In this document: piece after piece, positions 3,795 to 7,873 of the stretch
How the letters are laid out: each line of letters opens with the position of its first letter
How positions within the stretch are numbered: the first letter of the stretch is position 1
Virus record (IMG/VR): IMGVR_UViG_2617270940_000003
Reading direction: 5' to 3' (one strand)
DNA length: 14,195 bases
Source: a virus
Lineage: Duplodnaviria > Heunggongvirae > Uroviricota > Caudoviricetes
Made by a program: the position numbers and the translations under genes
The notes under the pieces: generated by a model
Seen by the model: the letters and a program-made list of their open reading frames with translations, nothing else
The model's database searches: none
Told to the model about the DNA's origin: nothing

Positions 3795-4151
3795 TTAAAA
3801 AATCAGAACGCCGTGCGGCCTCAACACCCGAAAAGCTTCTTTAAATCTCTGTCGCAAATCATCACGCCAGGCATCTTTATTCAGCCGTCCATATTTCTTT
3901 CCCATCCAGGCGTTATCACCAACACGCTCAAGATGCGGAGGGTCTAATACAACCATCGAAAAAGATGCGTCTGCAAATGATAATGCACGAAAATCTGCGA
4001 TAATGTCAGGGCTGATAATCAAGCGTCTCCCATTGCGTAATGTGTATCCTTCTTTTCTGATATCGCTGAATATCGCCCGTTTGTCAGACTTATCGAACCA
4101 GAACATGCGGCTGCCACAGCACATATCAAGAATGGTTGCCGGTGCACTCAC
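3795..4151 (-). CDS. Putative DNA (amino) methyltransferase, probably C-terminally truncated (catalytic motifs I and IV only, 118 aa)
   Basis: ILDMCCGS (AdoMet-binding motif-I-like) near the N-terminus and VVLDPPH (DPPY/H-type motif IV) about 60 residues later. No room for a target-recognition domain. Start overlaps the upstream ORF stop (ATGA at 4148-4151). Downstream sequence is decayed. Confidence 0.5.
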   Translation of the reverse strand: MSAPATILDMCCGSRMFWFDKSDKRAIFSDIRKEGYTLRNGRRLIISPDIIADFRALSFADASFSMVVLDPPHLERVGDNAWMGKKYGRLNKDAWRDDLRQRFKEAFRVLRPHGVLIF

Positions 4152-4570
4152 TGCGCCACGTCCTGAAAATTACCCTGATAGAAAGCCAGTATGCGCTGCA
4201 TAACTTCGCTCTTCCGGCACTCGCGACAGATTATGTTTAGGCGACTGTCGTAGCGACGTATTTCTCCGTCAGGTGATGACCAGATAAGGTCCGGATCAAC
4301 CACAGCAGGTTTCTTCACCTTTGCCCTCGAGAGTTTTTTGCGGGCGTTTTGCCAGTCCTTACGCGCCTGTTCAGAGGGGAATAACCCGTAGCCGGAGTTG
4401 TATACATCGCCACTGGCTACCAGCTCTCTGGCAAGAACGCTCATCAGATATCTAGTCGCACCTGTTTTAGCTTCCAGTTGCCGTAACGTCTCACGGCCGC
4501 TCTGGCGCACGAGTTCCACCACCTGCCATTTAATTTTTTCCCGCTCTTCTTGTGTAAAAACTTTTGCCAC
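4148..4570 (-). CDS. Hypothetical phage protein, 140 aa, basic
   Basis: Complete ORF in an operon-like array, translationally coupled to the downstream methyltransferase fragment; no recognisable motif. Confidence 0.55.
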   Translation of the reverse strand: MAKVFTQEEREKIKWQVVELVRQSGRETLRQLEAKTGATRYLMSVLARELVASGDVYNSGYGLFPSEQARKDWQNARKKLSRAKVKKPAVVDPDLIWSSPDGEIRRYDSRLNIICRECRKSEVMQRILAFYQGNFQDVAQ

Positions 4571-4610
4571 AAGTCCCCCTTAAAATTACCTCATGACCTG
4601 AAATCAACAC

Positions 4611-4994
4611 TTATCCTCTGAAACCAGACGGAATTTCTGTATCCGGTTCAGAAATATGATTAACACAACGCTGTACAGGTGAACGTCCCAGGCGGATGAC
4701 CAGTTCGTCCCATTTTTCGCGGAGCTTTGACGGGCTCATGATGTTTTTTACCCAGAATGGATCTCGCTGAACCCGACCAAACATTTCGCAAATTTGTCTG
4801 TGGCTTCTGCCATCCAGCATCCGCATTGTGCGCACGTCATTGGCCCAGGCAGTCCAGTTAGGCTCTTTTGGTCGCATGATCTCGCCATCATCACTGGCTG
4901 CCTGTTCGTAGAGACCCACGATCCGCCCCCAGATCCACTGCGCACACGCCAAATCCTCCCTGCTACCCCACTGGCGTTTTTTCGCACTAAACAC
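4611..4994 (-). CDS. Probable C-terminal domain of the replication initiator, as a separate ORF because of an in-frame TAG; apparent GTG start
   Basis: Same minus-strand frame as 5025-5630. The only stop between them is the TAG at 5027-5025, followed by ten sense codons (DSLTRNSDAV) and then this ORF. Confidence 0.5.
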   Translation of the reverse strand: MFSAKKRQWGSREDLACAQWIWGRIVGLYEQAASDDGEIMRPKEPNWTAWANDVRTMRMLDGRSHRQICEMFGRVQRDPFWVKNIMSPSKLREKWDELVIRLGRSPVQRCVNHISEPDTEIPSGFRG

Positions 4995-5024
4995 AACCGC
5001 GTCGGAGTTCCGGGTTAAAGAATC

Positions 5025-5630
5025 CTATTCAGTCGTCTGCGGGTCCGGTTGCGAAGCTTCCGGACGAAAAGTGTTTTTATTCTCTGTAGTAATCTCTGTT
5101 GTATTCTCTGTAAGATCATCAGGCCATTTTGACCCGATGACATTGGGTCGTTTTGAACCAATGGAGCGTTTCATTTTGACCTCTTCCATCGTGTCATTTT
5201 GACCTGATGGAGCGGCGCATTTTGAACCGATGGATTCGCTCAATTTGCCACCATCTAAAAGCTCGCTCCCATAGTTGATCGTGTAGAAATTGGTCATATC
5301 GCGCTTTGATTTATTGAGCTTTTCACAACGCAAAAGCCCCAGCGTTTTCAGACTTGCAAACGCGCGCTTTAACGTTGACTCTGACCAGAATGGGAACTGT
5401 TCCAGCCATTGTTCCGTTGTGTTATAAATCCAGCGAACACCATCACATTCCATGCCGGAGTTGGTATCTCTCAACCAGTAGTGCAGTTGTTGCAAAACAA
5501 TGGCTTCGTTTAAGCCAATTTTCATTGCCAGCTGCGTGTTTATAACCAGTGGGCGTTCAGCAAAAAGAAGGCTCATAATTCCATCCAGCTTTTTGTTGGT
5601 ATTGCTGTCGATACGCAAGCTTGAAAGCAA
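5025..5630 (-). CDS. Replication initiator (lambda O-like replisome organiser), N-terminal DNA-binding domain plus linker; ends at an amber codon
   Basis: 201-aa ORF with ...LNEAIVLQQLHYWLRD... helix-turn-helix-like segment and a repetitive linker (SIGSK x3) whose coding DNA is the iteron array. Sits downstream of the Cro-like and cII-position genes. Alternative start Met19 at 5576. Confidence 0.6.
   Translation of the reverse strand: MLSSLRIDSNTNKKLDGIMSLLFAERPLVINTQLAMKIGLNEAIVLQQLHYWLRDTNSGMECDGVRWIYNTTEQWLEQFPFWSESTLKRAFASLKTLGLLRCEKLNKSKRDMTNFYTINYGSELLDGGKLSESIGSKCAAPSGQNDTMEEVKMKRSIGSKRPNVIGSKWPDDLTENTTEITTENKNTFRPEASQPDPQTTE
5124..5233. repeat. Five direct iterons (putative phage replication origin) inside the initiator gene
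   Basis: C(A/G)TTTTGA(A/C)C..GATGG-type repeats starting at 5125, 5149, 5172, 5195, 5218 (23-24 bp periodicity). Flanked at 5081-5111 by three TCTCTGT repeats at 12-bp spacing and an AT-rich tract at 5067-5080. Confidence 0.6.
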
Positions 5631-6078
5631 TTGCTTTTTCTATAAGTTCGTCAGTTTCACGATCCACTACGGCAGGATCAGCAAAAAGCAGTCCGGACTC
5701 CACCACATCGCCATATTCTTTGTTTAACCCGGCGATCATGCACGTGATGCTTTTTCCGTCAGTAATTTCACGATACAACCTGAAATCACTAATCCGGATA
5801 GCCTCCATAATCGCAGGCACTAGCGCCGTGAACTTTTCACGCTTATCCCTGGTGTCGATAGCCTTCCAGCGTTCGAATATCTTCACTCGATTAACACCAA
5901 GCGCTCGCTGATCAACCGCGCCACCTTCATCTGTGACACGCTGAACATCGATGTTCGGGCGCTCTTTCAAAGCCCAGAATGCTTCAGTGATTAATATCGT
6001 CGCCTGCTCCTGTGTCATTCCTGGTCGACATATCCAGGCATCCAGAGCCTCACGAGCCTGTTCAGGAGTGATTTTCAT
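5557..6078 (-). CDS. Hypothetical early protein at the cII position (second gene of the Cro-side operon), 173 aa
   Basis: Complete ORF immediately downstream of the Cro-like gene, overlapping it by 17 nt. No motif recognised. Function inferred only from position. Confidence 0.5.
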   Translation of the reverse strand: MKITPEQAREALDAWICRPGMTQEQATILITEAFWALKERPNIDVQRVTDEGGAVDQRALGVNRVKIFERWKAIDTRDKREKFTALVPAIMEAIRISDFRLYREITDGKSITCMIAGLNKEYGDVVESGLLFADPAVVDRETDELIEKAIAFKLAYRQQYQQKAGWNYEPSFC

Positions 6079-6289
6079 TGTTCAACCGCCCCGCCCGCTT
6101 CGTCTTACGATATTCATCATAAACTTTGGGATCATACTGAAGCTCCCCGCCAGATGCCTCCTGTAGACGCATCGCGCGACCTTCAGGAACCAGTATCCCC
6201 CAAGCAGCAACACTTGCCAGCCTCACTCCTGCGGCATTGGCAAGCTTTGTTTTGCTGCCAAAAAAAGTAATTGCGTCAACTTTAAGCAT
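6062..6289 (-). CDS. dicC: Cro-like HTH repressor, DicC-like (75 aa from Met at 6289; the longer 86-aa frame starts at 6322)
   Basis: HTH segment FFGSKTKLANAAGVRLASVAAW. Divergent from the DicA-like gene across a 48-81 bp intergenic region that contains a palindromic operator. Confidence 0.6.
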   Translation of the reverse strand: MLKVDAITFFGSKTKLANAAGVRLASVAAWGILVPEGRAMRLQEASGGELQYDPKVYDEYRKTKRAGRLNNENHS

Positions 6290-6303
6290 CAAAGCCCCCC
6301 TCT

Positions 6304-6321
6304 TGTTAGACTTTTCTAACA
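6304..6321. promoter_or_regulatory. Palindromic operator candidate TGTTAGA-cttt-TCTAACA in the dicA/dicC divergent promoter region
   Basis: Perfect 7-bp inverted arms with a 4-bp spacer. Same half-site as the palindrome downstream of dicA. Confidence 0.5.
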
Positions 6322-6370
6322 TTATTGTGCGCGGGATACCTAAGTCAAGAAAAATTAGAATTACCTAACT

Positions 6371-7820: not shown

Positions 7821-7873
7821 TTTCTGGTGACGTTTGGCGGTATCAGTTTTACTCCGTGACTGCTCTGCCGCCC
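7821..7873 (+). ncRNA. dicF: DicF small antisense RNA (about 53 nt), followed by its intrinsic terminator T-run at 7874-7878
   Basis: Sequence tttctggtgacgtttggcggtatcagttttactccgtgactgctctgccgccc followed by ttttt matches the DicF sRNA as I recall it. GC stem (ggcgg at 7836-7840 pairing with ccgcc at 7868-7872) immediately before the T-run. Confidence 0.8.

Follow-up and report, generated by a model that had tools for sequence, protein, structure and literature searches.

The window analyzed here is the whole stretch of 14,195 nucleotides (nt) of a Caudoviricetes record (IMG/VR IMGVR_UViG_2617270940_000003), and its host element is a Qin-type cryptic prophage adjoining rspB. We analyzed an O-like replication initiator gene on the minus strand of this window, the direct repeats within the gene, and the TAG codon that divides it (Table 1). 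The original prediction, made from the letters alone, described a frame from 5630 to 4611 on the minus strand that was interrupted by one TAG alone, at 5027-5025, and this interruption was borne out.

Table 1. Features of the initiator locus, followed by neighboring features (window positions; aa, amino acids)
Feature	Position	Strand	Remarks
O-like replication initiator gene	4611-5576	-	321 codons plus stop; pseudogene here via the stop at codon 184
N-terminal winged-helix domain, aa 1-112	5241-5576	-	predicted iteron-binding
Five near-palindromic iterons of about 23 nt	5117-5232		coding-strand core GGTCAAAATGAC
Three 12-nt repeats (12-mers)	5078-5113		coding strand ACAGAGAnTACw; proposed origin unwinding element
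Low-GC, purine-skewed tract	5060-5119		contains the 12-mers and AATAAAAACACTTTT; GC 0.325-0.375 versus about 0.5 in the flanks
Amber TAG, codon 184	5025-5027	-	Gln184, CAG in relatives; G>A at plus-strand position 5027
C-terminal domain, aa about 198-294	4695-4985	-	homologous to the P-interacting C-terminal domain of lambda O; untranslated here
DnaT-like C-terminal tail, aa 302-321	4614-4673	-	QRCVNHISEPDTEIPSGFRG; untranslated here
cII-like / YdaT-family gene	5557-6078	-	PF06254; PHROG 163, CII-like; directly upstream, 20-nt overlap with the O start
cro/dicC-like gene	6062-6322	-	first gene of the rightward operon reading into O; from homologue annotations
PR-like sigma-70 promoter match	6321-6348	-	TTGACT-16-AATAAT, 10/12 positions; consensus match only
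DUF977 gene	4148-4570	-	'ren' position, directly downstream of O; PF06163, E 5e-29; PHROG 142

In all five annotated records (PhiR42_1, HannyBb, mEp460_ev081, and two E. coli genomes), the initiator gene is a single coding sequence of 966 nt, which starts at an ATG matching window position 5576 and ends at 4611. The residues M1-S2-L3-L4 are conserved among the homologues, in line with this start. The TTG at 5630, where the frame had been taken to begin, was therefore replaced by the ATG at 5576, and the intact protein has 321 aa instead of about 340. The segment after the TAG comprises 137 codons (185-321); the 127 aa given for it earlier correspond to a mechanical open reading frame (ORF) beginning at GTG 4994. 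The profile PHROG 391 ('replication initiation O-like') matched an intact homologue along its full length (residues 17-321, profile positions 11-298 of 298, E 1e-90), and the window allele differs from this homologue solely by the stop codon. A total of 4274 initiator homologues were found. Among the 120 best listed, the full-length ones are typically 321-330 aa long and come from E. coli, E. albertii, Citrobacter, and Salmonella, each with one continuous ORF. The proposed check on homologue continuity thus returned one ORF of this length, in phages as well as in these genera, and the ORF is open in 85 of 87 close relatives.

The C-terminal half of the protein is 34% identical to residues 135-270 of lambda O over 148 aa (BLASTP, E 5e-26), which, with the PHROG 391 match, confirms the O-like identity; its AlphaFold2 model is all-helical, with a predicted local distance difference test (pLDDT) score of 70. 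The N-terminal domain has the predicted fold of the RepA_N or DnaD-like winged-helix initiators. PF04492 (Phage_rep_O) was not detected in this domain even at E<=10, whereas lambda O matched it at 5.7e-36 in the same run, and the RepA_N- and DnaD-family Pfam models gave no relevant match at E<=10. Compared with initiators of the RepA_N type (staphylococcal RepA, PDB 4PTA) and of the DnaD/DnaB type, identity in the structural alignment was 11%, with no Pfam match. RepA_N-type initiators belong to plasmids and have a different C-terminal domain, whereas the element in the window is a phage element.

Repeats within the initiator gene

Repeat search and Tandem Repeats Finder (TRF) located the five iterons at 5117-5139, 5141-5163, 5164-5186, 5187-5209, and 5210-5232, all on the same strand and spaced by 24, 23, 23, and 23 nt, so that the five in-gene direct repeats about 23 bp apart of the original prediction were recovered. 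Each of them is a near-palindrome, for example CATCAGGCCATTTTGACCCGATG (iteron 1). The core CATTTTGAMC is present in five copies within 110 nt, and the maximum per 110-nt span in 2000 shuffles of the window was three, reached once. The window-wide count of the core (7 versus 3.35 expected) is not significant by itself; the clustering alone is significant. The 23-nt period is out of frame and brings the iterons into all three reading frames, so that five repeats at the DNA level yield three distinct peptides. The repetitive linker described earlier is present, but SIGSK occurs twice rather than three times, with VIGSK once; a period of 23 nt is not divisible by three, which shifts the remaining two iterons into different frames.

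The same searches resolved the three TCTCTGT repeats noticed at 12-bp spacing into the 12-nt units TATTCTCTGTAG, TAATCTCTGTTG, and TATTCTCTGTAA, and the AT-rich tract reported beside them corresponds to the drop in GC. We compared third-codon-position variability in 50 distinct close relatives. The fraction of variable positions was 0.28 in the N-terminal and 0.30 in the C-terminal domain; it fell to 0.077 across the iterons and to 0 across the 12-mers. Of 57 homologous genes, drawn from many phyla, 48 have two or more copies of ACAGAGAnTAC(A/T) at the corresponding place in the gene; in loci L016-L067, from Proteobacteria and Firmicutes, the site lies at nt 400-550 of the gene, approximately. 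When one genome per species was considered, homologous genes carried 3-5.6 copies of a 22-24-nt repeat at about nt 320-460, followed by two to five 12-nt repeats. This layout ranges over Enterobacteria, Pseudomonas, Acinetobacter, Staphylococcus, Bacillus relatives, lactobacilli, and Clostridia, with the taxon labels of loci from metagenome-assembled genomes (MAGs) to be read with care.

For a codon test of the 12-mers, repeat units were chosen by the peptide TExT alone (n=85 units). Thr was encoded by ACA and Glu by GAG in 85 of 85 units each, compared with 19% and 51% elsewhere in the same genes, and the fourth codon was ACA or ACT in 84 of 85 and never ACC. In eight loci, one 12-mer copy stood at 11- or 13-nt spacing, in a shifted frame, and the DNA motif was kept. 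Because of this codon bias and the persistence of the motif out of frame, the constraint must act on the DNA. We propose from these patterns that the 12-mers are an origin unwinding or loading element. In the searchable literature we found no earlier description of the 12-mer, only unrelated primer sequences, which is no proof of absence.

Residue 67 of the initiator (codon 67, 5376-5378, minus strand) and the third base of the iteron core vary in concert, independently of host phylogeny. Ser67 (SESTLKR-type) was found with GGTCAAxxTGACC in 12 of 12 such loci, including one Staphylococcus locus, and Asp67 (xDTVKR-type) with a G-G-C-A core (GGGCAAxxTGCAC-type) in 12 of 12 loci, from Pantoea, Pseudomonas, Comamonas, and Acinetobacter. 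This pattern would be expected from direct reading of the base by the predicted recognition helix, and residue 67 may act as a simple specificity code. Klebsiella phages match window positions 5078-5519 at 78% DNA identity, yet have an unrelated C-terminal domain. The N-terminal domain, the iterons, and the 12-mers form one block, which is inherited as a unit and passed on as a single module by recombination.

The original prediction had compared this arrangement to ori-lambda inside gene O, and both the codon position of the iterons (about 115-153, compared with 116-144 in lambda O) and the low-GC tract after them agree with lambda. As in lambda, the origin would lie within the initiator gene, where the linker between the two domains is encoded; the iterons form a tandem array of near-palindromes centered on TCAAAAYG, and the purine-skewed low-GC tract follows them in the direction of O transcription. 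The C-terminal domains are homologous, and the order cro/dicC, cII/YdaT-like, O in a rightward operon, with a match to a PR-like promoter, is also that of lambda. The two systems differ in several respects. The N-terminal domain here is outside Phage_rep_O; five 23-nt iterons stand in place of four of about 19 nt, and 12-nt repeats are found where lambda has a simple AT-rich stretch; DUF977 occupies the position of P, which is missing here; and the protein ends in a DnaT-like tail instead of the lambda ...DWIYGVDL. By its architecture, the homology of its C-terminal domain, and its place in the operon, the locus is nevertheless an O/ori module of the lambda type.

These features suggest a mechanism for the intact protein. 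The N-terminal winged-helix domain would bind, as dimers, the five iterons in the linker-coding segment, and the resulting nucleoprotein complex would destabilize the adjacent low-GC tract with its three 12-mers. The lambda-O-like C-terminal domain and the DnaT-like tail would then bring in the replicative helicase of the host, probably via the DnaT/PriA/DnaC route of the host because no phage loader is encoded.

The amber codon and its explanations

The window was compared with E. coli CFSAN064036, and one base differed in 1501 nt, namely G>A at 5027 on the plus strand, i.e. C>T on the coding strand. Comparison of the codon across relatives, as had been proposed, revealed CAG at position 184 in 87 of 87 ungapped full-length relatives, and a 69-mer with the TAG version had no exact match in 581 complete E. 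coli genomes carrying the stretch. Since CAG is universal among the relatives and the TAG was absent from these genomes, the TAG is, on this comparison, a private CAG>TAG nonsense mutation. The near-identical locus of CFSAN064036 contains insertion sequence (IS) remnants and frameshifted genes or pseudogenes, with no head or tail genes, so that the prophage was already cryptic before the TAG arose. The first of two alternatives offered earlier, a nonsense mutation in a defective prophage, is therefore supported by the uniform CAG and by homologues that are all single ORFs.

The truncated product ends after residue 183; it keeps the predicted DNA-binding domain and the linker and loses the C-terminal domain and the tail. 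The standard testers for O deficiency in lambda are amber mutants that plate on a supE host (PMC6022878): Oam317 with 160 aa, Oam8 with 205 aa, and Oam205 with 294 of 299 aa. Oam317 and Oam8, classic O-defective alleles, lie at positions comparable to that of codon 184. By analogy with these amber mutants, the truncated initiator could at most bind the origin, without the ability to fire it. The origin DNA is undamaged here, and an intact initiator provided in trans could act on it.

Taken together, 4611-5576 is very probably the initiator of a Qin-type cryptic lambdoid prophage, with its origin inside the gene, inactivated by a single C>T change (Gln184 to amber). The mutation is a further step in the decay of a prophage that was defective before; it is neither a signal for recoding nor a gene split by design. 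In its intact form the module is functional in actual phages, as HannyBb is a complete phage genome with a near-identical region. The window copy itself matters little: it documents a further case of inactivation in a cryptic prophage of the Qin type, and it confirms that a lambda-style in-gene origin can be recognized from the raw sequence. An in-gene origin and an amber codon are an ordinary finding in themselves.

Several points weigh against this interpretation. The TAG is known from one base of one sequence, and a sequencing error would look the same. The ancestral codon is CAG, and therefore amber suppression with Gln would give back the wild-type protein; in a supE host (the glnV amber suppressor), TAG would be read as Gln and the initiator would be exactly wild-type. 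The drop in GC at 5060-5119 is moderate and not extreme (0.33-0.38). No meaningful Pfam family was found in either half of the protein, and the model of the C-terminal domain had no confident structural match. What is said here of iteron binding, of origin function, and of the part played by the 12-mers is deduced from sequence, with the covariation of residue 67 and the frozen synonymous sites as indirect support for binding and replication.

Other copies of the gene carry lesions of their own. Two IMG/VR contigs (L119 and L126) have a TGA at codon 244, an independent nonsense mutation. In E. coli GCA_054853035.1 (L173:2501-3373), an exact in-frame deletion of 93 nt from iteron 1 to iteron 5 leaves one iteron in an otherwise identical copy; the resulting 290-aa variant is represented in protein clusters P0016-P0021. 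This naturally occurring deletion parallels the ori deletion mutants of lambda. Such independent lesions fit neutral decay, but another possible cause is selection against replication in situ where a prophage has lost the ability to form particles.

An error of sequencing or assembly, or a laboratory artefact, would leave the gene of the source strain intact (CAG) and its initiator functional. A difference of one base from the nearest genome and a TAG seen in no other genome are what such an error would produce. However, C>T transitions that create stops are common genuine mutations in cryptic prophages, independent lesions occur elsewhere (the TGA at codon 244 in two loci and the 93-nt iteron deletion), genes adjacent to the initiator in the near-identical locus are already pseudogenes, and the sequence flanking the TAG has no error hotspot such as a homopolymer. 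We therefore regard an artefact as unlikely.

The truncated N-terminal fragment may alternatively have been kept because it is useful: as a protein that binds the origin but lacks recruitment activity, it would block the replication of incoming phages that share the iterons or prevent lethal replication of the cryptic prophage in situ. It retains the full predicted DNA-binding domain. The region 4400-5900 (1.5 kb) is present at a coverage of at least 80% in 1707 of 5426 complete E. coli genomes (about 31%), and at 97-99.5% identity in phages PhiR42_1, HannyBb, and mEp460_ev081. Survivors of lambda replicative killing yield O and ori mutants (PMC6022878), and the other copies described above have independent O or ori lesions. 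This explanation is nevertheless very unlikely, as the allele is private to one sequence with no sign of selection or spread, and the gene lies downstream of a repressed PR-like operon, from which expression in a lysogen-like state is doubtful.

The repeats could also be nothing but a repetitive coding linker, or operators for autoregulation, instead of a replication origin. They do lie within the coding linker, and their translation gives peptide repeats of the SIGSK-like and TExT kinds. We consider this highly improbable in view of the out-of-frame period with its three peptides from five units, the frozen synonymous sites of both repeat sets, the eight loci in which the 12-mer motif is kept in another frame, the match to ori-lambda in gene position and in the succession of iterons and low-GC DNA, and the same layout in 48 of 57 homologous initiator genes across phyla.

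Scarcely credible is the second alternative of the original prediction, a functional stop that yields two polypeptides or, through programmed recoding or a suppressor, regulated amounts of the full-length protein: the frame is open beyond the stop and supE would restore the exact wild-type protein from the ancestral CAG (established supE genetics), but the stop is not conserved, being absent in 87 of 87 relatives and 581 E. coli genomes, the homologues are all single ORFs, GTG 4994, the next in-frame start, has no Shine-Dalgarno sequence upstream, and the context GAA-TAG-GAT is unlike the readthrough signals known to us.

The DnaT-like tail and helicase loading

The last 20 residues of the initiator were compared with the final 20 of E. 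coli DnaT, and 13 of 20 (65%) were identical (pairwise E 8e-07), with the segment protein-terminal in both (...SEPDxxIPxGFRG). The tail corresponds to positions 160-179 of the NCBIfam DnaT model and also matches the PDB DnaT chains 2ru8, 6aep, and 9zbt. The only other match in the PDB sequence search, to YteR, was attributed to chance. The rest of the protein is not shared with DnaT, and membership in the DnaT family was rejected: NF002770 scored 15.5 bits versus a cutoff of 201, and the DNA-binding domain of DnaT, PF17948, was not detected in the initiator. Since the last 20 residues alone match DnaT, phage homologues are misleadingly labeled 'Primosomal protein I' in RAST-style annotation. 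Tails of the DnaT type also end initiators with an unrelated C-terminal domain (Klebsiella phage) or an unrelated N-terminal domain (phage Evi).

A search for homologues of P, DnaC, and DnaB found none in the window, in the 3 kb that follow O in related loci, or anywhere in the genome of HannyBb. In HannyBb, whose DNA is 98.1% identical to window positions 4400-5900, the O-like gene is the sole replication gene. The gene next to the initiator is DUF977, not a loader. DUF977 was considered as a substitute for P and rejected because it comes after a genuine P gene in L172. This locus has the same N- and C-terminal domains as the window initiator, a lambda-type tail, and the P gene next to it.

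We surveyed non-redundant loci for loader genes within 3 kb downstream of the initiator; the association with tail type is uncorrected for phylogeny. In the 19 loci with a DnaT-type tail, there was no P, DnaC, DnaB, or Walker-A ORF. Five loci had a lambda-type tail (...W..W..L). Four of these had a lambda-P homologue, and the fifth, caught by the crude pattern, had DnaC/DnaB genes. Among 49 loci with other tails, a DnaC-like, DnaB-like, or Walker-A ORF was present in 26.

A protein of 128-164 aa with an N-terminal winged helix-turn-helix (wHTH) and a PerC domain (PF06069) is encoded directly after the initiator in 17 loci (L008, L017, L020, L025, L026, L029, L031-L036, L040, L041, L043, L047, and L050). 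Most of these have a clear DnaT-type tail, while L017 and L041 have variant GW/GF endings. The wHTH-PerC protein was not found in loci encoding P, DnaC, or DnaB.

Phage LLS and 34 of 314 lambdoid phages are reported to have 'O-only' replication modules, the replication of which is described as not understood (Genome Res 2025, PMC12315714). These modules resemble the one analyzed here in having an O homologue alone, without helicase or loader; the window copy differs as a broken prophage allele, not an active phage. Neither a DnaT-like tail nor in-gene repeats are mentioned in the part of the account available (PMC12315714), and the available portions of a 2026 preprimosome paper, a 2017 restart review, and a 2014 review do not specifically describe contacts of DnaT residues 160-179.

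We tentatively suggest, as a possibility more apt to fail than to hold, that the DnaT-like tail marks loader-independent phage initiators, including the O-only modules (approximately one in nine lambdoids), and that the 12-mer is a sequence-specific unwinding or loading element. The tail would plug the origin-bound initiator into DnaT-dependent helicase loading of the host (PriA/PriB or DnaC-DnaB). Initiators with a lambda-type tail would use their own P, and those with other tails their own DnaC- or DnaB-like genes. The 12-mer ACAGAGAnTAC would be more than plain AT-rich DNA. If true, this reading of the tail could explain the O-only lambdoid replication modules.

The initiator family matters because it is very common in E. 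coli and active in isolated phages, and it belongs to the O-only lambdoid class, which has no known mechanism of helicase loading. Three features of the family are new leads as far as checked, and moderately interesting: conservation of the 12-mer, the correspondence of helix residue 67 to the iteron core, and the association of a DnaT-type tail with the lack of a loader. They make the open question of O-only loading experimentally tractable.

Prophage context and further observations

The element contains int, xis, a RecE-like exonuclease gene, dicB, the DicF RNA, dicA-like, dicC/cro, and cII/YdaT-like genes, O, DUF977, a broken methyltransferase gene, hok/sok, and IS remnants. DicF antisense RNA was detected at 7822-7873 on the plus strand (76.7 bits), and the sok antitoxin RNA of hok/sok at 2204-2375 on the minus strand (104 bits); both are typical Qin-type cargo. 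Two further signs of prophage decay were observed on the minus strand. An ISNCY/IS1202-like transposase ORF of 446 aa is located at 790-2130, and a fragment of 118 aa from a SAM-dependent methyltransferase, annotated as frameshifted in near-identical genomes, at 3795-4151.

A terminator-like hairpin followed by a T-run was found at 5501-5517 on the plus strand, antisense to the 5' end of the initiator gene. Its position is roughly that of the oop antisense RNA in lambda, and it is a consensus match only. In the family survey, three MAG contigs labeled Bacillota bacterium (L013), Veillonella parvula (L015), and Collinsella (L068) carried the E. coli prophage gene at 95-100% protein identity, and these contigs are most likely mis-binned Escherichia DNA.

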